DNA of 64,000 bases, the filler included, from Reclinomonas americana ATCC 50394 (taxonomy: Eukaryota), in assembly GCA_048213135.1 (NCBI GenBank). It is 15 parts of 15 records of this genome, joined end to end, with 100 filler letters (N's around TTAATTAATTAA, not from the genome) between each part and the next. Parts side by side here need not be neighbours in the genome. Positions count along the whole stretch, not along the records: positions 51,960 to 54,110 come from AFZH01019498.1; positions 54,211 to 56,187 come from AFZH01019499.1; positions 56,288 to 59,945 come from AFZH01019500.1; 12 more parts are not named here. One strand, given 5' to 3'. Position 1 is the stretch's first letter. Every line of letters starts with the position of its first letter. Of this stretch, positions 4,808 to 57,738 are shown one piece after another. The position numbers were made by a program, and so were the translations under genes. The notes under the pieces are model-generated. The model was not told where the DNA came from. It was given only the letters and a program-made list of their open reading frames with translations, and searched no databases.

Positions 4808-4984
4808 CTGCGCATGAGAAGCAGCGTGATGAGCTCAAGACAACACCCTCTTACGCNNNNNNNNNNNNNNNNNNNNNNNNNNNNNNNNNNNNNNNNNNNN
4901 TTAATTAATTAANNNNNNNNNNNNNNNNNNNNNNNNNNNNNNNNNNNNNNNNNNNNATTTGCACACGCACGCACGCACACACAG

Positions 4985-7377: not shown

Positions 7378-7906
7378 ACCTTCGAGTCGCGAAGCTTCGA
7401 TGGCGGTCACAGCTGCCATGGCCGCCTCCAGCTCGGCCATTTGCCGACTACGAGAGGGCGGTGATGCGGCTGCGTNNNNNNNNNNNNNNNNNNNNNNNNN
7501 NNNNNNNNNNNNNNNNNNNTTAATTAATTAANNNNNNNNNNNNNNNNNNNNNNNNNNNNNNNNNNNNNNNNNNNNACGTGCATGCACGAGCACATACACG
7601 TACCCCTCATTAATGTCATCGAATTCAAACTTGGTCAGTTGTGCCAGTGTACGACCGTGGCGTTCCTCGGCCTCCACACGCGCAAGCACAAACTGCGCCA
7701 GTGTCTTGGTCTTGGCGGCACCCTGCTTGATCTGGTTCAAGCACAGCTCCATGTGATCCTGCGCGTGTTGGTGTGAGACTTTCTGTGCGAGGGCAGAAAT
7801 AAACACACACACGCGCGCGCGCACACGACGCAACCCATAGCTCGGAGCGGTAGGAAGGACCCGGCATCATGAGCCCGGCAGAAGACGTGTGTGTCTCCGA
7901 TGCCAT
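7378..7906 (-). CDS. F-BAR/FCH-domain protein (N-terminal exons at 7604-7906; probable last exon at 7378-7475 across a gap)
   Basis: SYRSELW|DHMELCLNQIKQGAAKTKTLAQFVLARVEAEERHGRTLAQLTK fits the FCH pattern (LW...G...L..F...R...E.....L..L). The link to the 7378-7475 exon is inferred. Confidence 0.72.
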
Positions 7907-15639: not shown

Positions 15640-17790
15640 ATGTCGAAGCGGTCGCGCGATCACGCCGACAGCCGCAGCCGCTCTCGGTCACGCACACCAC
15701 CACGCAAGGCTCGACGGCTCTCTCCGCGCGACAAACTGGCCTCGGCGGCTGCCGCGCGCGAGCCGCCTCCATGGCCACCAGTCATGCACGATGCGCTTCT
15801 CTTCCCGCCGCAATTGCAGGTGAGAGAGCCCAGCAGCAGCAGCTTCAGTTCGCCACTGTTGCATGCCACTGACAGCGCCCGCCACCACCACCACCACCAC
15901 ACAGGGTCTTGCAGAGTCGCCATCTGCTCTTGCTGCACACTGGCAGGCGTGTTGCGTTGCCGACGAGGAGGCCGATGCATTGCGTGCACGACTCACCAGT
16001 GCCATGCGCGAATGGTCAGTCATACGCCTTCACTCACTCTCTCACCTCCACTCCCTCATCCCCTTCCGTTTGCAGGTACGGTCGCGGAGGCAGCGACCAT
16101 GTGTCACCACTGGACGCCGCTACGGCGAGCTTCTTGGTGCAGTCGCCGCAGCTGGCCAAGTCACTCTGCTTGTCGCCGCTGCTGGAGCTGATGGAGAGTG
16201 GAGCGTTGGTGTACCGCGGTAACCGACATCCGTTTGTCGATGTGGCCAAGGAGTGCGGGTCGCCCGCGTCGTCGCCTCAATCGTTGCGTGCGTGCGAGCG
16301 TGTGTGTATAATGTTTGGTGGTGATAGTTGACCCACCACTGCATTCGTCAGACTTCTGCTTCTGTTCTGCACGCTGGCAGAGGCGAGAGAAGCGGCCGGC
16401 GCGACAACGGCAACAGCGGTGCGGCAGTGGATGGTGCAGTTGATGGTGGCGGCGCCGAGTGAGGTGCGACGCGATTTCGTGTGCGCACTCGGCCACTGCG
16501 TGAATGGATCGCGACCCGAGCCCTGGCAGCCGCTGGCACTTCCAGACTTGTCAGTGGAGGCGGCTGGAAAGCTGCTTACCGCTGTGGCGTCGGCACCGCA
16601 GCTGGCGGTGGAGAGCATTGCATACTTGCTGGAGGCGTTCCCGGGACGGGCCGATCGCTTCCTCGATCCAATGGAGGAGGTACGGCGCTTTTCTGCACAG
16701 CTGTGTCACCCACTGTTGTGTTTTACACTGTCGCGCGCACAGTTCCTGCGAAAAGCCACCACGGCCTCTGCGGCACCACTGGTGCGCCTGGTGCTGAGTG
16801 ATGCACTGAGCCACGATTTCAACGTGTCGACCATGGTGCGCTCGCTGCATCGCCGCCTGACACCAGTGCGTGGTGCGTGGTTTGTCGACCTGTGGTGGCC
16901 CGCGATTCTTTCCGAGCTGGCCGTGCAGCATCCGACGGGTTCGCGGCGCCAGCGTGGTGAGTGTGTGCACGGCGGCACCTTCTCGATCGCTTCACGGCTC
17001 ACGCGCTCAATCGTCGCAGCGAGCTCACTGGTCGAAGTCGTGCTTCGAGATCTGCCTCGGCTCTTGTTTGGCGACGACAAGGACGGGCGCGGAGACGAAG
17101 TGTTTGCACGCTTCACGGCACACTTGTTCCACGGCAGTCGATCCTCGCTGGCGCGCGATGTCGTGCTGGCTGCGTTGAGTCAGTGCGTGCACTCACATCC
17201 GCATGTGATGAGCGTGAAACGTATCGGTGCGAGGCGTGCGTCTGCTCTTTCCACTTCGTGTCTTGTGTGCTCGTCTCCTCATCAATACCAAACAGAGCTC
17301 CTGTGTGCCGCCGTGCGCTCCCTTGCACATGCTGCTGCTCTCTCAACCGGCAGCAGTAGCAGCAGCAGCAGCATCCACGGTGACGATGATGCGAGCTCCA
17401 ATGTGTTGCCGGTCATTCGCTACTGTGCGCAGATTGTGGCCGATCGTGTGCGACATCTCATTCCCGTGGCGCTGGACGACTCGGTTGCACGATCTGCGCG
17501 GCTGGAGGCGCAAGAGCACTTGTGTTCCCTCATCAATGCCATCCTGCTGTTCCAGTTGCCTGCGAGTTTCCGCCTGCTGCCGAGTCAACTGCTGGTCGAG
17601 TGTCTGTTGCTGATTGACGCGTGCGAGAGCGCTGCAAGGGGCGAGGTGTTTGCCTCGCTTCGACCCCTGGTGGATCGGCTACTGCGCGCCATGTCCGGCA
17701 TCGCCACCCTCACTGTCCTCGTGCCGCCGTGCAACTCACTCTCGCTCGGCTACTCGCGTCCAGGGTGCGTCTGCGGTCGCCGTTGCCGTC

Positions 17791-17829
<39 letters not shown>

Positions 17830-18772
17830 AATAATTTCTTGCAGTGCCGCGGGATCGGTAGCCGGCATTCAACTCGAGAGCGGCGACCAGACACTGGCGG
17901 ATACCGACTTTTGTGAGCACTTGCTCACGTGCCTTCTCGCGTGGTTCGAGGCACCACATTCAGGAAATCCCTCGCGGCAGACGCTGGAAACACCCGTGAC
18001 GGCGCTAACTGTGGCACTCTGGGTGCGTTTCATCCCGTCGAGCACTCTCAAGGACCTCTGTCTTCGCTGCATGGGGCACGTTGTCAGCGTGCTGTGCTCG
18101 TCCTCTGCATTGCATGTCGCGCAACAGTCCGAGCTGGCGGATCATGTGGCACTGGTGTGCGCCGATGCACTCCTGCATGACAACGGCAATCGTATGCGGA
18201 ATCTGGGGTTGCGTTCATCAACAGGGCGATTGTTGCAGTAGCGCAAGTTGCTGATTTCGTGCACTGTCTTTCCCTGCTCGTCAGACTTCAGCAAACCGTC
18301 CGCAGCCTCACTGCGCTCTCTGGGAGCGTCGCCTGTCACTTTATCAGTGTGCTGCTAGCGCAAGTGCGGCAACTCGTGCTGACCATGAGCCAGTCTCGCG
18401 CGACTGCTCGTCGTGGTCTGGCGTAACGCACCATTGTCTCCGTGCTCTGTCGATGGCGGTGCCATTGACTCTTTCCGTCTTCGCGCAGAACTCAATGTCG
18501 GTGCGCTATCGCGCTTGCTCGGCGAGGTGGTCCGTGAGGTCGCAGATGCGCAGCGAACACCTGCTGCAGCCGACGAGGTGCGACAGTACGTCAGCTCGCA
18601 AATTGAGCATTTGTGGGTACAAGGTTCCGTCCCTCGCGCGCCGCCTCGTCTAATGTGCGAGGACCTCACGTGCTACGTATCAGGGGCAAGTCGAGGCGAT
18701 GCAGTGGCCGATCTCGAGACCGTGATTACCGACCTGCACCGAGTCGTCGGCGACTCTGCGCAGACAAGGTGA
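15640..18772 (+). CDS. Large hypothetical Leu-rich alpha-helical protein with an RS-rich N-terminus, multi-exon
   Basis: MSKRSRDHADSRSRSRSRTPPRK start, long exons with regular GT-AG introns, and stop after VVGDSAQTR. No family recognised. Confidence 0.65.
17793..17828. repeat. (GT)n microsatellite, intronic. Similar tracts at 28115-28215, 33210-33243, 50229-50268 and 59177-59217
   Basis: Direct dinucleotide repeats visible in the sequence. Confidence 0.95.
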
Positions 18773-28765: not shown

Positions 28766-31312
28766 TCAGCCAACCAGTCCGTTCTCCGCCACAAGTCGCA
28801 CCATTTCAGTATGTCCGGATGACCACTGCTTCCACGCCTGGCTGGCCACGAAGCGCGGGAAGCTGTCGGCACGCAACGTTCTCATGACACTCTTCACGGC
28901 CCCATCAAAGAGCGACAGGTAGCTCTCCACGACGGCAGTGACTCCCTCAGTGGGAGACGTCTGTGGCTGATGAGCACCCTCGAACGCCTGCCGAATACGC
29001 AACAGAATGCCACCCGACAAGTTCAGTTCGCTGATGCCTGGTGAGCACGCGACGAGCAGTCAGCAATGTAATGAGCAGTATCAACGCCGGTGCACATAAG
29101 GGTTCCACCATTCTCTTTCAGGTACTCCTCGTACATGGCGTGGGCGTGTCGGTGAACATCGGCAGCTGACCGCGAAGCCGACGGCATCTGCAATGTCGTG
29201 CTCTGTGAGGACACGAGAAGCAGAGAAAGAGAGAGAGCGCCAGTGGCGACTTGCGCTGCGTCGCACGAGATCTCACCTCACGGAGTTTATCAATGGCGTC
29301 CATGAATGTGAGATTTTCCACACTGACAGGCAAGCATGCTTTTTTTGAGGAACGACGGCACATCGTAGTACACAGATCTAGGCAGAGTGCGCACCTGAAC
29401 TCGCCGACCAGATACCTACACAACACAACTGTGAGTGCATTCATCGATCAGTGCCTCGCAAGTACGCTGCGCAACTGTCGAAACTGCTCCCGCGCCTCCG
29501 ACGTGCTCATCACGTACTCAAACTGCGTAGTCGACGCGTCCATCAAACTTGCGCCGAGTTGACTGCCCTCGCGTGCGCGAGAAAACCCCTTGAGGGTCGC
29601 GTTCCACGCACGTAGTCGCAGCAGTGGAAGCACAATCGGCACCAGTACATGCACACAAATCAATGTCGGCATCATCACATCGGTCGCCACCTGCAAAGGA
29701 CCAACGACAAGCTTCTTGTAGTCGACCAGACTCAATATGGCGGCTGTGAGACTGAGCGGCACGCTGAATATTGCGTTCACCAGCAGCCTGCAATGTGCAG
29801 CAGCAACACACGCGCATCATGACAGTCACAACCTGCATGAGGTACTATGTGTCGGCGCATTCACGCAACTCAATACGGTTCGAAAACACATCTCGCACGC
29901 CGCGAATGAGCCAGGCACACTGAGGTCGCACGCACATGTCAGCCATCTTGGAAGACAGCAAGCAATGCTCTCGCAGCGCGCACCAACAGGTATCCCGCGC
30001 TCAGAGTGACAATCGTGTATGCACTGGCTACGACTGTGTTACTCTCACTCGTGGCGGCCGCGTGGAAGAATGGACACCAGGCCAGAACATCGCGCTCAAA
30101 CGCCACAATGTCAGCCTGCTCCTCGCTCTCGGTGGGCATCGGTACCTTATTCGTGCATGAAGGGCGTGAGAGGCACACACATGCACACACACGCACACGC
30201 GCTGGCATGCAACGAAACGAACGGTCCAATGGCCACGGCCAACACGAGGACGTACATGATGGTGAGTACGACAGTCAAGCCGGCGAGTATCAACAGGAAG
30301 CGCCCCTCGCTGCACGCAGCGGTCGTCATTAAGTCACCGCTCGATGAGCATCACAACTCGTCGCACCCTCGACCCACCTCCACGCTCGCGCACGACGTAG
30401 ACGGGCCACCACTGCGGTGTTTGCATTCATATTCTCGGCTTCCACTCCACCATCGATAGCCTTGGTGAGACTGACCAGTGATAGTCTCCTTTGTGCTCGC
30501 ACTCGGCCGGCATCAAAGACTATCCACAGGCGCACTCTGCATCAAACAAAAGCGTGAAAATCAGCAACACGCGTGACAAACATCAGCTCCACACCGCTTG
30601 CATACTCAACGCCCTCAGCTGCAAACAACAACAACAAGTGAGAGCTATGCACAGCAGACATGCGGCGCGCGGCAGACGACGACTCACAATTGGGATGACC
30701 AACACCAGCGGAATGAAGACCAAGAAAGGAATCAGTTCGCCCCACTGTACAACACAGCGATCGCATGCACACTGTGAACAACGAGGAGTGGCATGGCGCA
30801 GTGCAGCAGGTGTGTGTGTGTGTGAGAGAGAGAGCACCACGAACAATTGCAGTCGGTGACAGCTGGTGCAGTTGCCCGCCGGCCACAAATCCCGTCGCCG
30901 TCACCAGTCGAGCAATAAGGGCACCCAATGCAAACATGGCCTGCACGGAAGCGCAAGCAAAGAAGGATATCAACACCACGAAATCCGAACATCGACGATG
31001 ATCATTCCTGTCATCAATGCACACACCTGCGCCCACAACATCCACCGAGAACGTGCCCGCATGATCTCGTGCTTGCGCAACAAGAAGTGCATCACCAGCA
31101 CCACCAGCACAACAGTCACGGCGATCGGCAGCACACTGCCCTTCGGTGAGAGTTCGGAATGTCTGTCAACAGTCAGTCTCGCACCCAACTCACATCTTTG
31201 CAGTCAGCTTGGATCGACCCGAGCGCGCCAGAGCCGCCGGGTCGTGCTGCAGCTCCAGCTGGTTCTCCCATGTCAGCAGACACTCGTGGTCCACATTGCC
31301 CGCCGAGGCCAT
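28766..31312 (-). CDS. Multi-pass membrane (7TM-like) protein fused to a C-terminal RGS domain
   Basis: Multiple hydrophobic helices starting IVLPIAVTVVLVVLVMHFLLRKHEIMRARS. RGS motifs FRQYLVGEFSVENLTF, AMYEEYL, ELNLSG and LFDGAVKSVMRTLRADSFPRFVAS. Confidence 0.85.
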
Positions 31313-31369
31313 TCACGTCGAAAGCAGGACACGCCGCCCAATTCTTGTCCGCTTTCTCACCCCCCATCG

Positions 31370-32536
31370 ATGTTCACGCGACGCTCGGCTTGCATTCCGT
31401 GCGAAGGAGTGGTGTCAATCACGACCACAGGCGGTCATCCGTCGCACCCAGACACCTTTGTGAGCGGCAGCATGGACCGCTCGCTGCGCGTGTGGTCGCT
31501 GCTGTCCGGTGAGTTGCTGGAGTGTTGGGATGAGGCGCATTGTGGCTGGGTGCTGGCGGTGGCGTCGACCCCCGACAGTGAGCACTTGGTAACGGGCGGT
31601 GCAGACAACCGAGTGCGTATGTGGTCGCTGACTGCGCGGCAGCCGATGCTGATGATGTCGCCGTCACGTGCGCCATACTGGATCTTGTCGGTGGCTGTGC
31701 ATGCTGAGCGACAACTGGTGTTAGGTGGAGGGACGGACTGCAAGATCAATGTGTGGAACATGGAGACAGGAGATAGTGTGCGAGTGATCACGGGAAACGG
31801 TCACGTGGTGACCGCCATTGCTGTGATGCATAGTGGGAGCCTGGCGGTGTGCGGCACCGACAATGGCGTGCTGTCGGTGGTGTCGTTGTGGACTTTTGAT
31901 GTGGAATGCGAGTTGCTGGGTCACATGGAGGGCGTCAAGTCGATTGCAGTGTCTGCAAACGATCACTTTGTGGCAAGTGGCTCGGCTGACCACACCGTTT
32001 GCGTGTGGTCGGGCACGCACTTTTCGTCCGGCGACCGTCAGCAGATGCCAGCGATGCGCTTGCGCGGCCACACCGACACAGTGTGGTCGGTGGCTGTGCT
32101 GTCCAACTCGAGGCAGGTGGTGAGCGGGAGTGCAGACTGCACAGTCCGCGTGTGGTGCTTGCTGACTGGCGACCAAGTTCAGTGTCTGGTTGGACACACG
32201 GACCGTGTTCGTGCCGTCGCCGTGTCGCGCGATGAGCAGCACATTGTAAGTGCAGGGAGCGACGGTGATATTCGACTGTGGGGCACGCCACTGGGTCTGG
32301 CTGCTGTGGAGGTCGTCGCTGTACGTGACGCACTGTCAACCGTACAAGATGTGCAGCACGAGCTTGAATGTGATTTCGCAGCTGTCGACAGCGATGCCGA
32401 CGTGGATATGGACGAGGATGCAGATGAGGAGCTCGAGGGCATGCAATGGTGTTTGGTCGAAATCGTGTTGCGTTGTTTCATGCTAGAGGAGGCACGACTG
32501 GTCCTGTTGCGAGTAGAGCAAGATGGCAGAAGATAG
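31370..32536 (+). CDS. WD40-repeat protein, single exon (~388 aa)
   Basis: About 7 repeats, e.g. SGSMDRSLRVWS, GHMEGVKSIAV...SGSADHTVCVWS, GHTDTVWSVAV and GHTDRVRAVAV...AGSDGDIRLWG. ATG at 31370. Confidence 0.92.
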   Translation: MFTRRSACIPCEGVVSITTTGGHPSHPDTFVSGSMDRSLRVWSLLSGELLECWDEAHCGWVLAVASTPDSEHLVTGGADNRVRMWSLTARQPMLMMSPSRAPYWILSVAVHAERQLVLGGGTDCKINVWNMETGDSVRVITGNGHVVTAIAVMHSGSLAVCGTDNGVLSVVSLWTFDVECELLGHMEGVKSIAVSANDHFVASGSADHTVCVWSGTHFSSGDRQQMPAMRLRGHTDTVWSVAVLSNSRQVVSGSADCTVRVWCLLTGDQVQCLVGHTDRVRAVAVSRDEQHIVSAGSDGDIRLWGTPLGLAAVEVVAVRDALSTVQDVQHELECDFAAVDSDADVDMDEDADEELEGMQWCLVEIVLRCFMLEEARLVLLRVEQDGRR

Positions 32537-34673: not shown

Positions 34674-37600
34674 ATGAGTGATTTTGTCACTGTGAAACCC
34701 AAGAAGCGGGTTGGCGCATCGCCTGCCTCTTCCTCTTCTGGTGGTGGTGGTGGTGGTGGTGGTGCCGGTGGCGGCAGTGCAAGACCAAAAAAGCACAAGG
34801 GAGGGGAGAAGAATGCCTCTGGTGGTGGAGGTGGGAAGCGCAATGGAGCAGCTGGAGCAGGTGGTGCGGGTGGTGCGGCTGCTCCATCGCCGGGGCAGAC
34901 ACGACCGGTGAGTGAGTGGGAGTCACTGTCACGCGCTGAGCTGAAGACATGTCCTGGTGACATCACCAACACCCTCTCTCGCTCTCGCGCGCGCTCTCTC
35001 TCTATCTCTGTGTGTGTATGCGCGCGCGTATGTATGCGTGCTCACTGCTGCTCTGTGCGCAATACACGCAGAGACGCAACAGTGAAGGTTCATCGTCATC
35101 AGCGTCCTCCGCAAAGCCGGAGCAGCAGCAGCAGCAGCAGCAGCCTTCGAGTTCACGCAAGTTGCGTGCATGTCCTCGCCACGCACACACACCCACACAC
35201 ACGCGTCTGTGTGTCTGTGTATTGCCCGAAGAGAAAGATGCATTCTTCGAATCTGTGCGACTGAATGAGGAGGGGCATTACAGGAGTGGTAAGCGACGAG
35301 GCAGCGGTCAGCAGCAGTCGGCTGCGGCGGATGCAGCTGCGCCGGCGTCACTGGTGTCCACTGGTGTGCCTTGTTTTTGTGAGTTGTGTTTGTTTGTCAC
35401 ATTTGCTGAGTGGTGGTGCGTGCACGCGCGCAGCGCACCAGTGGCGATGGGAGCGTGAGCAGGCCACGAACTCGGCCTCGTTTGGCCGCTTCCTGCACAC
35501 GTGTGTGCGCGTCAAGAACTGCATGTGGGTCATTGGTGGACGACAGGGTGTCGAGTACGGTCGCGATTTCCTGTGCTACGACTTTGGTACTGCTCACTCA
35601 CCACCGACGATGATGGATGATTGTGATGCTGATTGATGATGTGGGGTGCAGATGCAAGAAGATGGCGCACGGTGCCGATCGAGAGTCCGACGTGGGAGCC
35701 ACGCATTGGCCACTCGTGCACCGTCGTTGGCGACAAGAAACTGTACATTCTGTTTGGACAAACGCAAGACGGTACGCTGCTGGACGGCTCGCATGTGTTG
35801 GCCTACGATAGCGGTCAGTGCTGTGGTTTGTGTGTTTGTGTGTGCGTGTGGCCTGCTGACGAGAGCACTTGTACGGCCAGAAAACGACGTGTTCAACAAG
35901 TTGGTGTGCACCGGCGACGTGCCCTGCGAACGTGTGTCACACAGCTGCACGCTGATGGGAACCAACAAGCTGATTGTCTTTGGCGGGCTTTCGAAGAACC
36001 CCGAAAGTGGTGAATGGTTCTACCTGGACGATGTCTACGCCCTCGACCTCAGTTGCGGACAATGTGCATGCGAGGTGGTTGCATTCTCTTTCTGTTTTGC
36101 TTAGTTGCTCTCCTCGCACAGACACCTTTGTGTGGTCCGCTCTCAACATGGGCAGTCCAAAGCCAACAGCGCGCTGTGGACATGGAGCTGTGCTGATTGA
36201 CGATCACTACATTTTCGTGTTTGGCGGCTTGACGCGCCACGGTCACAGCGCCAATCTGTATGTCATGGATCTTGGTATGCGACACACCTCTGCAGCTTCT
36301 GTTGGTGTCACTTGCTGTGACTCAGAAAATTGTGTGCGCACAACAGCCCACTTGCAATGGACGCCGGCCAATGTGTTGGGTGAAAAACCGCCGTCCATGA
36401 CTGGCATGTTGGTGGCGTACTTTTCGAATACCAAGGAGGTGGTGATTTTCGGCTTTGGCGAGCCAACTGTTTATTCGTTTCAAATAGGTGCTGTTCTTTG
36501 TGTGCATATATTCGCGTGTGCGGCGTCTCATTTCGCACCTCGTAGACAAGGGATCGTGGCGCAAGCTCAATGTGGCAGGCAAGTGCCCGCGTGCGCGCAC
36601 GCATGTTGGTGGTGTGCAACTCGGCAACGCACTGTTCGTATTTGGCGGCCAGAACGAGAACTCAGCTTCGACCGAGTTCACCATCCTGACCAACCAGCCG
36701 GGCGACGTTCGCACACAAGTGCGGGAGGCTGGAGAAGGCTCTGGTTCCGCACCGCCTCCCTCTCCTCCAGCGCAGACGGTTTGTCGATTCATGCGAACGC
36801 TACACTTTGCTGTGTTTGCGCGTGTCTGACGTGTTGCGCAGCTGCCGATCCGCTTTGAATTTCACGGCCGAGCACGGCGTGATAATGTGGCAGCTGACAT
36901 TTCTTTCAACAACATTCTGCGACGCGTGCAAGATCTATGCCAACTTCGCGATGTGCCTGACTTGTCGTATTTCGATGGCCCTTCGCGCATTCACATTGTG
37001 ACCGAGGTTCGTCTGCGCCTCCTGCTGTCGTGTGCGTGAGTCTGTGTGTGCATGTGACTTACCCTTCTCTCCCGTGCGTGCAGCATGAGTGGCGGCTGTG
37101 CGTGGAAGATTTTCAAAAGTCGGGCGAGCGAAGCATGCATTTGGTTATCGAGCAGCGAGTTGCGCAGCCAGTGCCAAAGCTATGCAATTTCAACATTGTG
37201 TTACTCAATCGCGTGTGTTGTAGCAACCGAACCGACCTGCCACAGCCACCGGTGGATTCGCCTCGTCTTCAACCGTTGGTGGCAACGGTCGCAATTACAG
37301 TGGGAGCGGTAGCAGCAGTGCCAGAGTCAGCGACGAGCAGTCGGGTGTTGCCGTGCAGTCGTACCTGCCGAGCAGCTTGCGGCGGAGTGATGGCACTCCA
37401 CATCGGTGGACCAAGGGGTCCTTGCTTGGCAAAGGAAGTGCGCAGTCCGTGTCTCCCATGTTGTTATTGGTGGTGCAAGTATCCTTACACGCATGTAGGT
37501 GGTGGTGTGGTGCATCTGGCGTTGGATTTGGATACGGGTGCACAGTTTGCCGCGAAAGAGCTGGAGTTGGAGCGCATCAAGGGCTCCGCTGATCAGAAGC

Positions 37601-40024
37601 AGAAAGAGGTTTGTGTGCATTCAGTGCTCGGTTGTCGGTGTGACACGAGGTACTCAACCGCGGTTTGCGGTGCACAGTTGGAAGCGTTTGAGAGGGAAAT
37701 TGCGCTGATGAAGCAACTGAACCACCCCAACATTGTGCGCTACCTCGGCACCGAAGTCGACGACAAGAAGTTGTATATCTTTATGGAGTACTGCCCAGGT
37801 CTGGAGATGCAGCGTGTGCGCTCTTGTCTTTTCTCAACTCTCAGCTCACGTGCCACCCATATCGATCGCAGGTGGCTCTCTGTCGACGCACGTGTCCAAG
37901 TTTGGTCAGCTGTCGGTCACTCTCATTCGCAAGTACACGCGGGACATTCTCAGTGGCCTCAAGTACCTGCACGATTCGGGATACATCCATCGCGGTACGT
38001 GCAATGTGCACTTGATTGTTAGTGTGCCAGAAGAGTTGTTTTGACGGGATGAGACTCGCTAGATTTGAAGGGTGGCAATATTCTGGTCAACACCGACGGC
38101 TCGATAAAACTCGGCGACTTTGGTTGCAGCAAGCGACTGGTTTGTGTTCATGCCGATCCGTTTGTGAATGTTGGCATGCGACTCTCTTTCTCACGACAAT
38201 GTGTTATTTGTTGTTTTTCCTTCCCCGTGCACCACATACTAGGATGGTGAGTGTGAAGTAGATTGCTGGCGACTGCAGGTTTCTTTTGCTCACGCGTGCG
38301 TGCTCGCTGCAGACTCGAGTGTCGTCAACAGCCTAGTCGGGACGCCGCATTACATGGCACCAGAGGTGGTGACTGGCGAAGGATACAGAAAGTTACTCGC
38401 AGTCCACAGTGCGCGCATATCGTGCGATCCACGCACTGACTCGCGTGTCATTGTCGTCATAGATCTGTTGACATTTGGAGCCTCGGGTGCACCATCATTG
38501 AGATGGCGTCGGGCGATGTGCCGTGGTCGGAGCTGCAGCTCAGCCATCCTCTCAAAATCCTGTATCGTCTCGGTACGGCCGAGCTTCGCGAAATCCCCCA
38601 AATCCCGCCCTCGCTGCAAGGCGACGCTCGCGACTTTGTCCTGCGTTGTCTCGAACGGTGCGCCAGCTGAAATAGTGTTGCATGGCGCTCTTGGTTCATG
38701 TTTTCATTCGATTCGCATGCTTGTGTCTATGTGTGCACCACAGCGATCCGGAGAAGCGATGGACGTGCGAGCAGCTGATGGATCACCCGTTCCTGCAGGA
38801 CCACGGAGAGGGTGGCGCTGGTGGGTGTTGCGAGTGCTCCTTTGTAATCGCAATTGGTGCTGTTATTTTTTGTCTCACGGGCGTGAGACTACGCAGCGGC
38901 GCAACCTGTTCGTGGCCTGTCATACGCCTCGGCATCTCGCGGCACACGGTTGACCTCGCTACAGAGCGGCAACTCAATCACACCTGGCGCAGTGGCAACG
39001 GTGCCCCAGGGTGTCTCGGCCTCTTCCACGGTGGCAAGCTCGATCGTCTCTTCGTCGACACTTGACGAAGAAGCGGTGGAGAGCGAGTCCACCGGGGAGG
39101 ACGACACGGATGCTATGCAGCGGTTCCAGGATGAGGTCGATGGTGACGAGTATGACGTTGACGATGGTGGCGATGCCGAATACGAAAGCGGCGGCAACGA
39201 CAGCGGCGACGAAGGCGACGACGATGACAACGAAGGTGCCGAGGACGACGAATCTGAGAAGCGCAGTGGTGGTGCGTGCAGCGTCTATGTGTGTGTATGT
39301 GCGCGCGCAGCGTCAGGTCTGAGTTTGATGCGCAGGAGAGAAACCGCCATATCGCACAGGCTTGTCAGAACGAATGGCTCCGGTGTCCCTGCCGCCAAGT
39401 TGCGACAGTGTAGTGTCACCGACGCGTGTGACAAAGAGACACGAGTACGCTAACACTTTTGTGCGTTTCGAACAGAGCCACAGCAGAGGCGGCCACCACC
39501 CGCCGATATCAACACTCGGTCACATCATCAGTCGCAATCGTCGTTCCAGAGCACACCTTCGTCGTCGTCGGAGAACGGCAGTCAGATGGATCTCAGCAAG
39601 TCCATGGTGCGAGCGCGTCAAACCAACACCAATGCGTGGGGTTCGTCGGCTGTCTGGCGTGTCTGCGGCATTGGCGATTCTCGGCTCACAACTGATTTCT
39701 TTTTCGCAGTGCGTTCCCGGTCGTGGGCTGAGATGGCATCGCTGACGGCTGCGTCGTCGCCGCCGGCGGAAGACCCCGCCAGCCGGCTCAATTCCACCAT
39801 GCCTCCGACGGCGGGTCGTGGTCGTGGAAACGCTGGCACTGGTGGCGGTGCTGGTGCTAGTGGCACGGTGGGTGCCGGTGGAGCGGTGGGTGCGAGTGGA
39901 ATGCATGCGTCGAGAAGCCAGGGTAGCATGGTGAGTGCTGCGTGCTGCATTGCAGGTTGCGCGACGTGTGTCTAATTCGTCGATCTGTTAGCAGGCTGTA
40001 CGACGAGCGGATGGCGAGGAATAA
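34674..40024 (+). CDS. STE11/MEKK-type MAP3K with an N-terminal Kelch propeller and a PB1 domain
   Basis: Kelch repeats (RIGHSCTVVGDKKLYILFG, RVSHSCTLMGTNKLIVFGG, RCGHGAVLIDDHYIFVFGG). PB1-like exons at 36842-37170. Kinase motifs WTKGSLLGKGSGG, AAKEL, HRDLKGGN, DFG, GTPHYMAPE and DIWSLGCTIIEMASG. Confidence 0.92.
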
Positions 40025-43100: not shown

Positions 43101-45501
43101 AAGCAAGGGAGGAGGAGTTGAGACATGCATACACACACACACACACCTTTTCTTGCTCGCACGCCGCCAGATCGGCGCGAGCTCTCTCAATCTCAAACTC
43201 CTTCCTCTCCATGTCCTCATTCACCGTCCCGATGCTAGCATGCAACTCTGTGTATGCCTTGCCGAGTGCCCGCCACAGCTCTACCATTCGGCACCGCATT
43301 TTTTCCAACAAGCTGCCACGCTCGACGCAGTGCACAAACACCTAAAACGTGTCACGCAAGGTCGTGAGTGGACCGCGCGCTTATACGTAGATACGTAGCT
43401 ATAGAGCAGCTGCTGCAGTACCTGGCGACTGAGTTCACTCAGCACGACGTCGTAGATGCCAAACTCCTCCGTCAGCGACTCGAGATCGGCCTTGCGATGT
43501 TCCTCGAAACTATGGCGGCACATGGCGTCAGCAACACACAGCCTGCTTCTTGCGTCGTGCAAGGCGTTCGACGCAACGAATCGAGGTCCGACAGCGCAAA
43601 GTCGTCAGTGAGTTTGTGTCGAATCATGCTCTCCAACGCCTTGGCGAGAAAAATGACCTCGACACTGTTTCACACGGAAGTGAGTGCTTGCGCGCCAACA
43701 CTCGCGGCAAATACCAACATGGGGTCGCCTTCTCACCGTGAACTCGGCCGCGACGACGGGAAGACCAGGTGCTTGTACACCTTCTGCTCTCGGTCGTGCG
43801 CCACCTGACACGCACGGTGCACGGCATGAGGACTCTTGCAACATCAATGACAGAGCGCATAAAAAAACCAGACCTTGGCGTAGGGCACCAGCGGAATGGG
43901 CGAGTCGGCAAACACGTGATACGACTCGGGAATTTTTGTCTCTGGAATGCATCCGTGCAGCCACTGCCGCAAGATCATGGCATAGTCGTCGTACTTGCTG
44001 TCCTCGTCAGAAAAACACTCGGCGAACGCATCACGAGCAAACTGTGCCACCTGTTTTCTCGACACTCAATGAGCAACACACCAACGGAGACAACACACTG
44101 ACTCGTCGCTGTCGCGCCGCACCTTGGCCTCCTGCACCGACAGTTGCTTGTTGGCCGCTCGCTGCGCCGTCTGCTCCGGCACGTGATACGACACGTCGGT
44201 CGACAGTACACCGCCGTAGAGGTGAGCAATGTCGGGGAATTCGACACTCTGGGCCAGTTCCCGTGGCTGCGAAAACGACGCAAGAGGCATCTGCATGACC
44301 ACGTTCTCCAGTGTCATGCTGCTGGCGGGGCGAACAGTTGGCGACGGCGAGCGAGTCATACGGCTGGGCGAAGCGCTGCAGCTGCGTGTCGACTTGCGTT
44401 CCCGCCGCGCCTTCCGTTGCAAACCGTGATGAAGCTGATGAATTTCCGTGGCATACGGATTGCCCGCCGCCGCTGATGCCTGCGACGAGGTGGGCCGCTG
44501 TGGCGAGCTGCGCAGTGAGGGGAACGGCGTTGGATTGTCCACTTGCCCGAGTGCCAGCGACTTGGGGTTGGAGTTGACGAACGACAAGTTCAGTTGCTGC
44601 GAGTGCACTTGCTGTTGGTGCTGTTGATTCGTCCTGGCTCCGGTGGAGTCGTGCAACACACTCACACTGGCCTGCAGTACTGCGTCCATCACACGAACTG
44701 CTTGCTCAGCTGCCTCGGCCTCCGATGGTTGTGTTGGCGCGATGTCGACAACATCTGGCGGCACTCCCTGCACTGCGTGCGCCTGCACCTTCGATGAGCG
44801 CTGCTGCACCGAGTGCGGCATCGAGGCGTCGAGAAGCGACTTGAGGTGCGTACGTAGTTCGTCGTGTGCCATCGCTGTCTTGCCACTGGTGCCCACACTG
44901 TCCTTGCTGTCGCGAAGGCGATTACCGCTGTTGTTGCTGCTGCTGCCATTTCTGCTGCTGTTGCTACTCCTGCTGCTGCCACCACCACCGCCACCAACAT
45001 GGATTCCGCCTGCCAGATCGCCCAGCGTCAGAATCTCCGAGTCGGCCACCGAAGCTGTCACGCGACTGCTGGGACACGCGCTGTACGGCGCACTGACTGT
45101 CCCAGTCACCGCCGTATGTGTTCCGCCGCCGCCACCACCACCACCGCCACTGGCACCGCCACTGCGAGGAGCAAAGGTCGATGTCGCCTCATCTCCCATG
45201 GCCATCATCATCGAGAACTTGTGTGCACTGGCTGGCCGCGGCAGTGGCTGACCCGATGCACTGCCACTGCCCGTAGTAGTCGGTCCCGACATCTGCACCG
45301 CAGGAAGGCGAGACCGGGGTGAGAGACAAAGGAGAGTTTGATCGTAGATATCGAAATGAGGCGCGTCACCTTGGGCAGACGATTGGTGAGGCCGAGTGAG
45401 GCCACCACTGCATCACCGGCGGTAGTCGCACCAGGCAGAGCAGTAGTAGTGGTTGTAGTAGCAGCCGTCGCCGCATTCACCGCCGCCGCACTGTCGCTGT
45501 C
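40134..45501 (-). CDS. AXDND1: AXDND1-like axonemal dynein light chain domain protein with coiled coil (5' truncated)
   Basis: LVFPSSRPSSR..EVIFLAKALESM and EFGIYDVVLSELSRQVFVHCVERGSLLEKMR match the AXDND1/p28-type domain. A helical C-terminal domain follows (YIFQFFKEQFG...RFLMFTRFI). Confidence 0.7.
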
Positions 45502-48251: not shown

Positions 48252-50227
48252 ATGGTTCGCGTCAGCTTTCGTGTGAGCGAGGTGCCAGCGGCCTTTGGCG
48301 AGCTGTGCTTTGTCGTCGGCAGTGATGTTGCGTGCCGCTCCACACCACCACCGCATTAGTCAATCATGCGCTCACTCTCGCTCTCTCTCTCCTTCTCGCA
48401 CACACACGCAGGAGTCGCTTGGCTCTTGGGAGCACACCAACGGCTTCCAACTGCGATACCGCGACGGTTGCTGGGAGGGCACAGCGCGACTGACTTCGAT
48501 CGCCGACGACAAGCATCGCCACTCGTCGGCACTGTTGCGCTTCAAATACGTTGTGTACAACCCACACATCTCCAACTCGATCAAGGCCGAGACCGGTGTG
48601 CGGTGAGTGACTTGTCTTTGCTCTTGTGTACACACACAGACACACGCACACAGACTGCTCTGTTTGCCTTTGTGTGCGCCTCTCGCACTTTTGTGATGCA
48701 GAGAGCCGCTCATGCAATCTTCCACTCGCTCTCTCTTCCCACCCCCTTCTTTCCCGCGCTACACACACGCGTTCTCTGGTCTCCTCACGCATCGCACTAC
48801 ACGCAACGTTGAAGTGCAAGTTCGTTTTGTGAGCGACATGTCGCACTGATGTCGTCGTCGTGTCTGCGCAGAGAACTTGTGCTTCCGCTGCTGCACAGCG
48901 CGGAGCACGATCGGTTGCTTCATTTGGGCAGCGTGGATCTGTGGCGAGCGGCGGCAAGTGTCGATCAGGGCATTGTGTCGAGTGCGGCCTTCCGAGGAGT
49001 GCTCTTCCGACGCGAGGCCGACGCGGTGCCGCTGAGACCGTCGCTGGCCGATGTGCCGTCGGCCGACTGGGATCCGAGTGTCACCGAGGTCGAGGTGCGC
49101 GTGGAGGCGTGGCGCGTGGCACCCACCGATTCGGTGGTGCTGATCGGCTCGTCGCGGGCACTCGGCGAGTGGGATCTCGCTCGTGCAGTACCGATGGTGT
49201 GTGAGCAGCAGGCGGACGCCGCGGCGGTGTTCCAGTGGACCACGCGCTTCCAGGTGGCACGCGACGAGCTGCCGGTGCGATACAAGTTTGTGCTGATCGA
49301 TAACGAGGGTCGTGAGCGCATGTGGGAGGCCGGCGAGGATCGCGTGCTGGACGCGGACTTGGCGGCTCCCGGCGGCGGCGCGCCGTGCCGCAAGATCGCC
49401 ATGCAGACCACGCCTTTCCGCTTCCCCAACAACCTCGGGGCGCTGACGTTCCGCGGCGCCGGCTCCGCCATNNNNNNNNNNNNNNNNNNNNNNNNNNNNN
49501 NNNNNNNNNNNNNNNTTAATTAATTAANNNNNNNNNNNNNNNNNNNNNNNNNNNNNNNNNNNNNNNNNNNNATTTGTGTGTTTGTTTTTGCTCTTGATCT
49601 GGCCCGATAACTCACGGTGCTGTGCGTGCAGTGCCCTCGATTCGACTTGGCCTCTTGCGACACCTGTTGGGCGACACGGAGGCCGCAGTGGTGCGGGATC
49701 TCTTGTTTGTGGCACCGCCGGCCTCGACCACCTCTTCCTCATCGTCGTCAGCTGCCGGTGGCTCGTCTGCTCCCGACGCCGCCGTAGCCGCAGCTGGCAG
49801 TGCCGATGGCTCGGCTTCATCGTCCTCTTCGTCTTCGTCTGCCGGCGCCGCGCCACCTCTGTTTGTGGAGCACGATGCCACGGTGCTGTTCCTGAAGCCC
49901 GAGTTCAGCACGGAGCGTGCTGTGGAGAAGAGTGGCCTCTCACCGGAGACCTGCCGCTGCATCTACGTCAACGTGTTCAACAACGTGTGCCTGTACAAGG
50001 ATCGCGAAAACCGCGATGCTTTCTACCCGCGCTTTGCCCTGTGGAAGACCGCCAAGTACGGAGAGCTGTCGGCCGACTGGAAGCGCGAGTTGTACCGTCT
50101 GTGTATCTCGTACTTTTTCGAGCGACAAGAGGATCTGTGGGGTCAGGTGGGATTCGAGCGCACGTCAATGATGCGCCGCGCCTCCAGTTGCGTTTTTAGT
50201 TTGTTGTTGCAGCAGCTTGGTGGTGTG

Positions 50228-53476: not shown

Positions 53477-56187
53477 TCAAGAGCGCAGTCGTGACCGCGA
53501 CTGTCCGCTAGTGAGCAGCAGGTACAGTAGACCGACGATCAGCAACACAATCGATGCCTTGAGGATATTCAGTGACACCTGCAATGGCGCGGTGTCAGGT
53601 GGACCCGTGCACACACAACAACACTGTCGGTCAGAGATCACCTTCTCGCCCATGTTGAGCTCGTCCACCACGCTCTCGACAACCTCCACATCCGAGTCCG
53701 AGTCGTGACCATGTTGTTCTGTGCCGTTGGTGGAGCCCGACGAGGAGCCACTGGCGCCTGCGGCCTTTGGTGCCTGCTCCGCCAGCAGGTCAGCAGATGC
53801 AACAATGCTTCGTGTCACGCCACAGCACACACGACGCACCTTCGGCTTGCTGCTGACTTTTCGCTTCATAACTTGCGACTCGGTGGCGTCAGACGATGGC
53901 CCACGAGAAGCTGTTGCCGCTGGTGCTGCAGAAGAAGGCTGTGGAGGCGGGGCTGCGGAGGGCTGAGTAGCGGGCGTCGGCTGCGGAGCCGCGGCACCGG
54001 AACCTTGTATGCCAGCGCGCAACGCCAACACAGCAGCCGTAGAAGGCGGAAGCTCTGTGCGCAACCCAGTCAATAGCCATCCAAATACACGCGCACACAC
54101 ACACACACACNNNNNNNNNNNNNNNNNNNNNNNNNNNNNNNNNNNNNNNNNNNNTTAATTAATTAANNNNNNNNNNNNNNNNNNNNNNNNNNNNNNNNNN
54201 NNNNNNNNNNCACACACACACACACAAAACACACGCAACTGCTCAGCGATGTGGCGTCGACAGTGAATGGAACGGCGTGTGATTCGTCGCCCGTACTTGT
54301 CCACTCCGAACTGCGTGATCGGTCAGTCCGTCACACCTCACATGCCACTGAAAAAGTGTGAATCAACGCAACACTTTGTCGCTGGGCTTGGCACTTCGCT
54401 TGCGTCGACTAGCTGCCGCCGCTTCGGCATCCTCCGCAACAGCACTGGCGCCAGTGGGAGGTGCAGACGAGGGCGCTGACTGCGGTGCTGTGGCTGTCAC
54501 TGCCGTGGAATCGGCGGCCGCGTCCGCCCCACCCTTCTTGCTGCTGTTGCGTCGTGAGCGATTCTTCTGTGTCGTCTCCGTGGCACCCACAGGCGCATTG
54601 CCGCCTGCCGGAGCCACGGTGGACGCATTGGTTGCTGGCACAGGAATGCTCAAGCCCTCAGGCTTTGGCAACTTGCGCTCTCCACCACTCTGCCGGCGCG
54701 ACCTCGGTTTCTGTTTCTTGTCGTCAGTGGCACCTGCACGACGAGAAGAAGAAGAGGAAGAGGAAGAAGGACAGGGTGAAATAACATGACAAGAAGGGGA
54801 GCGACGGCGCGCGGTGACGCACCACTAATGAGATCCTCCAATCCGCCGATTTGCTCGGCAGTCAATGCCGGTACATGCTCGGCACTCGAGGCCGAATGTG
54901 CATCAAGCGACGGTGACGTGCCTGGGCTCACAACCACGTGGTGGTGATGGTGGTGGTGATGGTGATGATGGTGGTGCACCTCCGTGACGACACCATCGGC
55001 CGACACCTGCTTGTCAGTGGTCACGAGCGTGGTGGTAACGACTGTTTCGGTGGTCTTCTTCTTGCCACTGTTCGACCGCCGTCTTCCCGGGGCCGACGAC
55101 CGCATTGGAGACGTCGACGCTGCAGGGTAGACCCACGAAAGATACAAACTCAGATCGCCATGTCTACCTCCTTGCGCGTATGTCTGCTTCGCAACTGCGC
55201 GGTGACGGGTCGGTCGATGTCGTGTTGTCTTTCCGGCGACTATTGCTGCGTTTCCGTCCACCGCCTAGCGAAATGGAAACAGTCAGGCCATGAAGCAGGA
55301 TGAAAAGCGATGGTGCAAGCAATCACGCACTGCCGTGGCCCCCAGATTCCGCAGCCGCAGCCCCCGGCGCTCCGGCGGGGCGAGAGGGCGACGGCTTGCG
55401 ATCTGATGCGGTCGGTGTAGGTGCATTGAGGGATCTGCCGAAACAAACATCGGTGAGTTAGTTACACGCGGTCGCACTCTCTCGCAGTGTGAATACGCAC
55501 TTTGAGCTGCCACTGCCAACGCGATAGTGAGATACCGAGCAGCGAAAAACCAACAAACAGGAATGCAATGCAAACAAACCTCTTTGTGGGCGCGGGTGCA
55601 GACACCGACGTGCCTGTCGAAGCACTGTTCGTGGTGCTGGCCGAACCCGAGTGAGTGGAGGCGCGACTGGCCTCCGACGAGTGGCTCTCCGGTGACGCAG
55701 CACGCTTCTCAATGCTGTTGCCGCGGCTCCTATTCGGGCCTCGGCCAGACTGCTTCTTACGAGCATTATCGTTCGCTGGCTGTGTCGTGCCGCCACCACC
55801 ACCACCACCACTGCCACTGCCAGCTCGGCTGCGGCCTTCGCCTCCTCCCGCCGGCGCATTTCCCTCGCCTCCTTCGTGTCGTCGACGAGTGGACGGTGGC
55901 CTCTTTTCGCCACTGCCTCCAGCGTCCTTGGCGGATGACGGATTCTGAGTGCGTTCATCAGGAGCACGGCGAGGAGGCTGTGGTGGACGCTGCGCATCCG
56001 ATGCAGTCGGTGGAACCGGCACATTCATGACTACAGCAGGAGGTTGCGGTTGCGACTGTGGAAGCTGTGCGGGCGGCGCCGGCGCAGTCAGGTGTGGTGG
56101 CGGTGCCGTCACAGCAGTGCTTGTCGTCGCTGGCTCAATGAGCGGCGGCGTGCTCCACGCCGGCTTCTTCTTCTCAACGGCGCCCTC
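53477..56187 (-). CDS. Long disordered region with a poly-His tract and C-terminal TM helix; probable 3' part of the eIF4E gene
   Basis: Open exon starts immediately at the spacer (EGAVEKKKPAWSTPP...). Exon phase matches across the 54111 gap. Last exon is VSLNILKASIVLLIVGLLYLLLTSGQSRSRLRS*. Confidence 0.65.
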
Positions 56188-56287
56188 NNNNNNNNNNNNN
56201 NNNNNNNNNNNNNNNNNNNNNNNNNNNNNNNTTAATTAATTAANNNNNNNNNNNNNNNNNNNNNNNNNNNNNNNNNNNNNNNNNNNN

Positions 56288-57738
56288 CAGAGCACACCTT
56301 TTCCTGGTGACGTGGTCGCTGCACTTCCCAGCCCGGTTCCGCAATCGGGGCCACCTCCAGGGCCTTCTTCGTGGCCGGGGGGTTGGTGGTTCCCACGTTG
56401 GCCTTGGCATCCTGTGACAGAAAACGACGTCAGCCGACCCAGTTTGTGTGGCTTTAAAACGAGTAGAATTGCACGACGCAACAGCGTGCGTCTGGTACTC
56501 AATCTGGTACTGCAGCGAGTCGAGACCGAGATACGTAATAATCTCCCGCGCAAATGCATGCGCAACATCCGGCGCGGCCACCGAGGCGCTCCAGAACGCC
56601 ACAAAGTCCAAGTGTGCACGGCAAGAGAACACCACACCACACTAACGAGAGAAGAACACAATAAGTCCCATGCGACCAAGTTGGAAGTGGTCTTGCTCTC
56701 CTCACCAAGTCCTGCACGCTCTGGAATCCCTCCGCCACCATTCCCATGATCGCTTTCTCCCATACAACGCCGCGCAGGTGACGCGGAAGTTTCAGGATCT
56801 GCCCAGCATTGCGGGAACAGGGTCAACTCTCTTATTTGCGAGATGCGAGATCGGTCGGAAACACACGCAGACCCATCGGCCTCCGTTGGCGTTCTGCGGG
56901 TCCTCCCACGAGGGATGAATGTCGGACTTGAACACACGAAAGTTGGACAGGTACGGCAGCTCGGCCACATCCAGCTGACTCCAGTAGCGCCAGAATTCGG
57001 AGATGGTGGAAAACGATCCAATTCTGCCAGAGAACGAGGCGATATGAGGCGATGTCACTGTGGAGCTGGCAAACAAGAGAGCGCCGACAGAAACCTCTCC
57101 AGCTCCTGCGCGTACTCCTGCTGTGACATGCCACGATGCTGCTGCTGATCAAACCACAGCGTCCACACATGCTGCAGCGGCATCTCATCATCCTGCCCCG
57201 GCGAAGACAAGTCCTCGAGATTGCCTGGCACACAGATGAGCACATAAGGAGAGTATCCCATGCGTCGCTCTCCCCCGCACTCTCTCACGGACCAATGTCG
57301 GCTTCGACTTCATCGGCCCAGCTTCCCGAGTATCGCGTCTTGCGCGGTCGAGCATACGGGTGATCCTCGATACCTTTTTTTGCACACACACACACATGCA
57401 AGTCAATGACCAAATGCGCTGACTCAGGCGCGCTTGTTGACAGAGAGGCAACAGACGCAACTGTGCCCATCGCCCGACCATGTGTCGAAACCTGCGCGCG
57501 CGCGCCATCACACAATGTCACACACCCACTTTTGGCGACACAGCGAGACAGAGAACACAGAAGGCGACGATGCAGCACGCTTGACCAGCAGAGATGCGCA
57601 CACACACGTGCGTGCAAGACAGAAAAAGAAGAGAGAGAGAAGGCATGCACGCGCGAAACTCTCATCAGCCCAGGAGCCTGTGTCCACGCCACCACCAAAC
57701 ACTTGCGCCGGCGACAGTGGCGAAGCCCGCGGATCCAT
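56288..57738 (-). CDS. eIF4E-family cap-binding protein (N-terminal extension plus core domain; reading frame continues into the gap)
   Basis: PLQHVWTLWFD, EYAQELERIGSFSTISEFWRYW, FRVFKSDIHPSWEDPQNANGGRW and LCGVVFSCRAHLDFVAFW. No stop codon before the spacer. Confidence 0.92.

Follow-up and report, generated by a model that had tools for sequence, protein, structure and literature searches.

On the minus strand of the window (the whole 64-kb stretch of Reclinomonas americana DNA analysed here) lies an eIF4E-family gene, which we model as seven exons at 57738-56298/56288 with an open 3' end and a predicted length of 275 residues in the candidate exon models. The gene is real but divergent. 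Its membership of the family (PF01652) is evident from exon 4 (56873-57023), which encodes the core of the cap-binding domain: this exon alone matches positions 27-77 of the 158-position Pfam IF4E model with an E value of 7.3e-15 and a score of 55.5 bits (cut-off 28.7), and it matches eIF4E chains in the PDB (32 distinct sequences at E ≤ 0.001). The initial annotation, which recognised an eIF4E gene here, was correct in that respect. The domain begins in exon 3 (57095-57224; IF4E positions 1-24, E 0.01), for which all 16 PDB matches at E ≤ 10 are eIF4E and the alignments listed span the W..W motif. Its C-terminal part falls in exon 6 (56483-56641), where the match to positions 111-152 (E 0.07) is on its own below the cut-off and there is no PDB match at E ≤ 10. 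Between them, the phase-consistent exon 5 (56706-56798) is expected to cover positions ~78-110, and its 31-residue piece alone gives no Pfam match. Both the domain and the PDB searches were run on single exons, which weakens the domain statements for exons 5 and 6. Exons 3, 4 and 6 are colinear with the IF4E model, and a codon model for folded domains favours our annotated frame in exons 3, 4, 6 and 7 and, weakly, in exon 5.

The flanking exons lie outside the domain. Candidate exon 1 (57651-57738) would start at an ATG at 57738-57736 and is joined in a phase-consistent model, across a GT-AG intron of 277 nt, to the N-terminal candidate exon 2 (57293-57373), which also has GT-AG borders; neither the 29-residue piece of exon 1 nor exon 2 matches Pfam. 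Exon 7 (56298-56411) adds 38 stop-free codons past the Pfam domain and ends at a candidate phase-0 donor. Compared with the eIF4E family, whose members usually end ~38 residues before the end of exon 7, this protein has a C-terminus that runs at least 38 residues beyond the domain and probably into a further exon.

Human eIF4E contacts the cap phosphates through K159 and K162, and by hand alignment the equivalents of both residues in exon 6 appear to be replaced. Exon 3 carries a Trp pair equivalent to human W43/W46, and exon 4 carries equivalents of human W73, W102, E103, R112 and W113. The assignment of W102 and E103 follows a column-by-column alignment to solved eIF4Es, in which the Trp-Glu-Asp motif is kept; the equivalent of W73, the Trp that contacts eIF4G and 4E-BP, is aligned with the Trp of solved eIF4Es, and the W113 equivalent is also aligned to them. 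At the position of human W56, which lies beyond the end of the tool alignments, a hand alignment places a Tyr. In a review of protist eIF4Es, Class III forms are described as keeping W43 and having Cys or Tyr in place of W56, a Tyr here being the pattern of Class II and Class III forms (PMC3388326). The residue pattern of the present gene, with the W43 equivalent kept and Tyr at the W56 position in the hand alignment, is Class III-like. The product would be a putative soluble cap-binding protein with predicted binding to m7GTP.

A search of longer proteins with exon 4 found a single close relative, a fragment of 94 residues (P0001; 76% identity), which breaks at the same two borders as the exon. 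A scan of metagenome contigs with the exon 4 alignment returned 224 pattern matches and no relatives. The genome contig scan gave one match, over 28 residues of a bacterial MAG (L001), which was spurious and was dropped as irrelevant.

The reading frame beyond the spacer

On the far side of the spacer at 56188-56287, the minus strand holds a reading frame that is consistent in phase and has 631 codons or more. It has no detectable domain, a net charge of +28 and a composition of 56% Ala/Ser/Pro/Gly/Thr, and its product is predicted to be disordered. As initially annotated, the contig opens within a reading frame on the same strand as the eIF4E gene: the frame is open from the first base for 241 codons, and in piece 1 (55580-56187; no Pfam match) the first in-frame ATG is at 56034. 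In the chosen model piece 1 is followed by exon 2 at 55331-55434. The chaining of exons between 55331 and 55119 is ambiguous, and at least 79,032 open GT-AG paths with up to three introns exist. Ab initio exon chaining is far too permissive to count as evidence and was rejected as such. The next exon (54823-55119; no Pfam match below E 0.39) contains a His run at 54976-54938, which numbers 13 residues rather than the 12 first reported. After it comes an 89-nt pyrimidine-rich intron, then a basic exon of disordered character (54375-54733) without a Pfam match and a short basic exon (54235-54310), whose donor opens an intron that holds a (GT)n repeat and the spacer at 54111-54210. The remaining exons before the last are rich in Ala, Pro and Ser (53840-54054) and acidic (53642-53776), respectively. 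The 63-nt introns on either side of the acidic exon are in frame and stop-free and may instead be read through.

The last exon (53477-53578) directly follows the acidic one and has the form initially described, namely a predicted transmembrane helix and a short basic tail. The best 19-residue window (53566-53510) has a mean Kyte-Doolittle hydropathy of 2.47, and the 10-residue tail, with three Arg/Lys and no acidic residues, runs to a stop at 53479-53477. An AATAAA signal is found at 53433-53428, 43 nt downstream of the stop. The other modelled pieces reach a hydropathy maximum of at most 0.6, and the only other peak (2.51) sits in translated intron; no further hydrophobic segment appears in the modelled exons, which are open on the N-terminal side. 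Such a C-terminus would confer a tail-anchored topology, with insertion into a membrane predicted from its hydropathy.

Homology searches returned nothing for this reading frame. Its first exon had no match among proteins of 355-2000 residues, nor did residues 1-100 of that exon among proteins of 111-354 residues. For the 191-residue tail ORF, HMMER gave no match at E ≤ 0.001 among 1.84 billion representatives and the ESM Atlas gave no usable match. The product, with 631 residues or more, is most likely an orphan specific to this lineage.

Spacers, open frames and contig order

The spacer at 56188-56287 consists of 44 N, TTAATTAATTAA and a further 44 N, and serves as a placeholder for a stretch of undefined length. 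The other 13 gaps in the window have exactly the same composition, and the middle part of all 14 is a six-frame stop linker. They are fixed placeholders, and so neither the size of the gap at 56188-56287 nor the frame across it carries any information. How much can be hidden is illustrated by an Mre11 ORF at 4959-5549, which begins at position 270 of the 405-position model TIGR00583 (Rad32 residue ~277). Scans of the two contigs on its left covered ~75 other ORFs of at least 40 residues, on both strands, and none of them matched mre11. Some 270 Mre11 residues are therefore missing at the spacer 4857-4956, and a spacer can conceal at least 0.8 kb. The 100-nt spacers should not be taken as small gaps, a caution that applies to every gene in the window that crosses one. 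A repeat bridging 56188-56287 was also considered and is not supported, the similarity of the flanks being at the level of shuffled sequence: the local alignment score was reached by 103 of 500 shuffles for DNA and by 156 of 1000 for protein.

Open frames are easily obtained in this stop-poor genome. Across the window, with all frames considered, an open run of at least 41 codons is found at 43.9% of codon positions, the probability of a run of at least 51 codons is 0.36, and there are 198 stop-to-stop ORFs of at least 130 residues in 64 kb. The eIF4E frame is indeed stop-free up to the gap, as first noted, but this is close to chance given that all three minus-strand frames are open at 56411-56288.

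These properties raise the question of whether the contigs are misjoined, misordered or misoriented, or whether part of the disordered ORF is a chance frame in stop-poor, GC-rich DNA. The loss of the Mre11 N-terminus is as compatible with misordering as with a large gap, most contigs in the window are only ~2 kb, the many long shadow ORFs include plus-strand ORFs that overlap the region of the disordered ORF, and this ORF has no homologue, family or Atlas look-alike. We consider such an explanation unlikely, since several observations tell against it. At 54111-54210 the (GT)n tracts on both sides of the spacer and a GT-AG intron that crosses it in phase, both of which the initial annotation had recognised, argue that the contig order is true there. 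Leave-one-out codon scores choose the modelled frame in all four pieces scored and are positive in three of them, and the introns of the 3' half have good signals (the 89-nt pyrimidine tract and CTGAC branch motifs). The ORF also ends with the predicted helix, the stop and AATAAA, and an open run of 241 codons has an empirical frequency of only 1.6% in the window.

One gene or two at 56188-56287

If the contig order is accepted, the two coding regions on either side of 56188-56287 may belong to one gene or to two. The product of a single gene would be a tail-anchored eIF4E with 906 residues or more (275 in the eIF4E model and 631 codons beyond the spacer), a possibility to which we give the lesser weight. 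The fused form, which we put forward only tentatively, would consist of an N-terminal cap-binding domain, a basic disordered linker of ~600 residues containing the His13 run, and a C-terminal anchor. In its simplest version the gap would fall within a single intron, bounded by the donor at 56297 and by the acceptor that precedes 56064.

The candidate phase-0 donor AAG/GTGTGC at 56297-56296 lies 9 nt before the spacer and scores 7.63 in a position weight matrix, a value reached by none of 141 decoy GTs in the model exons, where the 13 model donors have leave-one-out scores from -6.4 to 7.9; the matrix was built from our own candidate exon models, which counts against it. Its standing above all the decoys suggests that the eIF4E coding region probably continues into a further exon. 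The candidate acceptor (exon start 56064; score 4.49) is the best in the first 450 nt of its contig, has a CTGAC-type branch motif 24 nt upstream and is in phase with the donor, but 11% of decoy AGs equal its score and the phases would agree by chance in one case in three. A codon score trained on disordered regions is 0.32 for 56187-56035, in the top 3.1% of 6596 control windows, and so coding-like usage reaches the contig edge, whereas the folded-domain model is negative for 56187-55950. The fusion is further favoured by the shared strand and open ends of the two parts, by the lack of a folded domain in the disordered ORF itself, and by the fact that the entire downstream part can be chained in phase through GT-AG introns of 63-211 nt. 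Set against this, open paths are very easily found, the spacer specifies neither the size nor the content of the gap, elsewhere in the window a spacer conceals coding sequence of 0.8 kb or more, and no homologue of such an architecture was found, either among the protein matches to exon 4 or in the literature searched.

On balance we think it probable that there are two neighbouring minus-strand genes (here A and B) whose junction is hidden by the spacer 56188-56287, a reading that we rate above the fusion. Besides the nature of the spacer, the Mre11 precedent and the near-chance openness of the frames, this view is favoured by the compactness of the genome. The eIF4E ATG is only 113 nt from a divergent ATG at 57852, and the stop at 53477 is followed after ~160 nt by the candidate stop of a convergent gene at ~53315 (candidate frame), so that one gene could end and the next begin, with intergenic sequence between them, in only a few hundred bases. 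The absence of a described eIF4E bearing a transmembrane segment in the literature searched, and of flank similarity indicative of a repeat across the gap, points the same way. The two-gene reading is weakened by the donor beyond the usual end of eIF4E, the coding pattern at the contig edge and the in-phase acceptor, by the coincidence of two genes that share a strand and are interrupted by one and the same spacer, and by the oddity of a tail-anchored protein of at least 631 residues without a folded domain, which the eIF4E part would supply.

With two genes, gene A would be a divergent, intron-rich eIF4E-family member, whose last exon and stop would lie within the stretch represented by the spacer. 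It would encode a soluble cap-binding protein, extended at the C-terminus by 38 or more disordered residues. The boundary between the genes presumably lies there too: the disorder-like codon usage up to the contig edge implies that gene B would start inside the gap and not at the ATG at 56034. Gene B would be an orphan that ends in a very hydrophobic helix and a basic tail of 10 residues. Its product would be inserted post-translationally with the disordered part facing the cytosol, either in the ER via the GET/TRC route or in the outer mitochondrial or peroxisomal membrane. The locus would then pair a divergent eIF4E paralogue with a tail-anchored orphan, in a eukaryote that has been little sampled, and would be of local interest only.

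Relation to known eIF4E and tail-anchored proteins

Tail-anchored proteins include the clients of GET/TRC40 as well as proteins of the outer mitochondrial and peroxisomal membranes, and the choice of organelle is set by hydrophobicity versus tail charge. The C-terminus at 53477-53578 resembles theirs in having a single predicted transmembrane segment within ~30 residues of the end, followed by a short basic tail. The cytosolic part of gene B is unlike that of the usual tail-anchored protein, as it would lack a folded domain altogether, except in the case that the eIF4E domain is part of it.

Long low-complexity extensions beyond the core are already known in the eIF4E family, for example in trypanosomatid EIF4E3 and EIF4E4, and in this the present gene is similar. 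The extensions of EIF4E3 and EIF4E4 are N-terminal and soluble, whereas here the extension (at least 38 residues) is C-terminal. In the literature searched, judged by titles and the opening lines of abstracts, no eIF4E with a transmembrane helix was found, and an exact-phrase search for a membrane-bound eIF4E gave nothing. The protist review covers extended forms, and the term 'transmembrane' does not occur in its text (PMC3388326).

A tail-anchored eIF4E, if the two parts do form one gene, would be the first case of a cap-binding factor with a membrane anchor of its own, and would offer a direct and genetically simple way to localise translation or mRNA storage at an organelle. Its cap-binding domain would be held on the cytosolic face of an organelle by a long flexible leash, in a position to capture or store capped mRNAs that are to be repressed or translated locally. 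The literature searched contained no direct fusion of an anchor with a cap-binding domain. Membrane-anchored adaptors for local translation are represented by AKAP1/MDI-Larp at mitochondria and LRRC59 at the ER. To our knowledge these anchors recruit soluble RNA-binding factors and none is itself an eIF4E. If real, the fusion would be like AKAP1/MDI-Larp and LRRC59 in that an anchor keeps an mRNA-binding or translation factor at the organelle surface.

A divergent eIF4E-family gene

An eIF4E-family gene was modelled on the minus strand from 57738 down to 56288, comprising seven exons that encode 275 residues without a stop. The introns are GT-AG and 64–74 nt in length, except for the first, which at 277 nt is far longer than the rest. 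Exon 4 (57023–56873) alone matches the Pfam family IF4E (E 7.3e-15; 55.5 bits, cut-off 28.7) and 32 distinct PDB eIF4E sequences. Exon 3 aligns with IF4E model positions 1–24 (E 0.01), and 16/16 of its PDB matches at E<=10 are eIF4E; exon 6 aligns with positions 111–152 of 158 (E 0.07) and has no PDB match at E<=10. Since these three exons match successive model positions, they are colinear with the domain, which finishes close to the 3' border of exon 6. Equivalents of human W43/W46 are present in exon 3, and of W73, W102-E103, R112 and W113 in exon 4, as judged from PDB alignments, and a hand alignment places Tyr at the position of human W56.

The closest relative found in a search of 5.8 billion clusters, and the only close one, was P0001, a 94-aa ORF fragment on a 932-nt contig of a public read assembly. 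It is 76% identical to exon 4 and its similarity ends exactly at both exon borders, which supports those borders and marks P0001 as genomic DNA from a relative whose intron positions agree with those of this gene. Candidate exons 1 (57651–57738) and 2 (57293–57373), both on the minus strand, each carry the same short Gly-Ser-Trp-Ala-Asp-Glu motif, which could mean that a short segment was duplicated internally or that the two are alternative first exons. Judged by sequence alone, the first ~28 codons of the divergent gene that starts at 57852 (+) look signal-peptide-like: a basic start leads into a hydrophobic run. Elsewhere, at 30860–32533 (+), 10514–11728 (-) and 35974–38950 (+), the window holds recognisable genes or parts of genes for a WD40 propeller protein, a ZIP zinc transporter, Kelch repeats and two protein kinase fragments, together with several ORFs of 400–500 codons without a Pfam family (e.g. 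16332–17831 and 44069–45412).

A probably disordered frame with a hydrophobic C-terminus

Past the spacer at 56188–56287, a phase-consistent minus-strand frame runs from the contig edge at 56187 to a stop at 53479–53477; seven GT-AG introns split its 631 codons into eight exons. Ala, Ser, Pro, Gly and Thr make up 56% of the product, its net charge is +28, and its Met residues are confined to positions 54, 243, 544 and 595. The His run, given as 12 residues in the initial annotation, counts 13 (54976–54938). The introns of the 3' half are convincing, one being 89 nt and pyrimidine-rich, with CTGAC-type branch motifs. The model is ambiguous at 55331–55119, where the chosen 211-nt intron keeps phase; an internal 97-nt exon breaks it and was rejected. 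The sole real hydrophobic segment lies in the last exon (53566–53510; mean hydropathy 2.47) and is followed by a tail of 10 residues, three of them basic and none acidic, in agreement with the C-terminal helix and short basic tail described previously. An AATAAA is found 43 nt downstream of the stop. The frame has no Pfam match better than E about 0.38, no relatives in protein searches and no look-alikes in the Atlas. Its last two introns (53777–53839 and 53579–53641, minus strand) measure 63 nt apiece, stay in frame and contain no stop, such that retention of either would add 21 residues and leave the frame unbroken.

Spacers, contig order and open frames

All 14 gaps in the window (starting at 2050, 4857, 7476, 21996, 24112, 28015, 45502, 47664, 49472, 51860, 54111, 56188, 59946 and 62070) are an identical construct of 44 N, TTAATTAATTAA and 44 N. 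It serves as a placeholder built around a linker with stops in six frames, so that length and frame across it are meaningless; every gene model of the record that spans a spacer calls for the same caution. The contigs span 1.7 to 17.4 kb and are mostly about 2 kb. At 54111–54210, the (GT)n on both flanks and the in-phase intron across the spacer, both as initially reported, argue for true contig order. An Mre11 ORF (4959–5549, +) directly after the spacer at 4857–4956 begins around Rad32 residue 277 and TIGR00583 position 270/405, and none of the remaining ORFs of >=40 aa on either strand of the two contigs to its left (24 + 51 ORFs) matched mre11. Because the N-terminal part was not found there, either ~270 Mre11 residues (the nuclease domain) are missing at this spacer, equivalent to 0.8 kb or more of coding DNA, or the contigs are misordered rather than true neighbours. 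The start of an FCH/F-BAR domain (E 6.5e-05; ORF 7576–7866, -) abuts the spacer at 7476–7575, and a CBM_20 starch-binding domain (E 2.2e-12; ORF 48813–49469, +) abuts that at 49472–49571; gaps probably truncate both of these genes as well.

The window is poor in stop codons, with 198 stop-to-stop ORFs of >=130 aa in 64 kb. A random codon position in any frame is open for at least 41 codons in 43.9% of cases, for at least 51 in 36.3% and for at least 241 in 1.6%, and all three minus-strand frames are open in eIF4E exon 7. The eIF4E frame does lack a stop before 56188–56287, as the initial annotation stated, but in this setting its absence says next to nothing. The run of 241 open codons past that spacer is an informative sign of coding. 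Exon chaining by open frames was rejected as evidence, since 79,032 open GT-AG paths with up to three introns lead from 55587 to the His-run frame.

One gene or two

The details initially reported for this locus are largely right, but its interpretation as one gene is undecidable from the data. We lean towards two tandem genes, one for a soluble, divergent eIF4E extended at its C-terminus and the other for a disordered, tail-anchored orphan protein. Using a matrix built from 13 donors of our own exon models, a candidate phase-0 GT donor 9 nt before the end of the eIF4E contig scored 7.63, a value reached by 0/141 decoy GTs in model exons (leave-one-out scores of the model donors, -6.4 to 7.9). 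If this donor is real, eIF4E coding, already 38 residues beyond the domain, continues in another exon. The next contig (56187 side) opens with 51 codons ahead of its first ATG; these scored 0.32 in the ORF frame with a codon model from the other disordered exons, in the top 3.1% of 6596 control windows, and longer non-coding controls scored <=0.01. Within the first 450 nt of that contig, the top-scoring acceptor, which would start an exon at 56064 and has a branch motif 24 nt upstream, agrees in phase with the donor. These signals, and the location of both parts on the same strand, favour a single gene encoding a true tail-anchored eIF4E. Against this, the splice matrices come from our own predicted models, the acceptor's score is reached by 11% of decoy AGs, phase agreement occurs by chance in one case out of three, and a folded-domain codon model gives negative scores for 56187–55950; the lack of a repeat common to both flanks of the spacer is unfavourable or neutral. 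The eIF4E ATG lies just 113 nt from the divergent ATG at 57852, and the interval between the stop at 53477 and the candidate stop of a convergent gene (~53315) is about 160 nt, so in this compact genome a few hundred hidden bases leave room for a stop codon, intergenic sequence and another start. With the rarity of such an architecture on one side and the donor, the codon signal and the shared strand on the other, we consider a single gene less likely than two, and a misjoin or a partly non-coding frame the least likely.

In the open-access literature searched, exact phrases describing a membrane-bound eIF4E matched no paper; nor was a tail-anchored eIF4E found in the titles and opening lines of abstracts among the eIF4E and tail-anchored literature matches listed. 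A full-text word search of the protist eIF4E review PMC3388326 did not return 'transmembrane'. By the definition of Class III eIF4E in that review, Tyr at the W56 position is a Class III-like pattern. The downstream frame has the same topology as tail-anchored proteins, provided that its N-terminus is free of a signal peptide or further TM segment.
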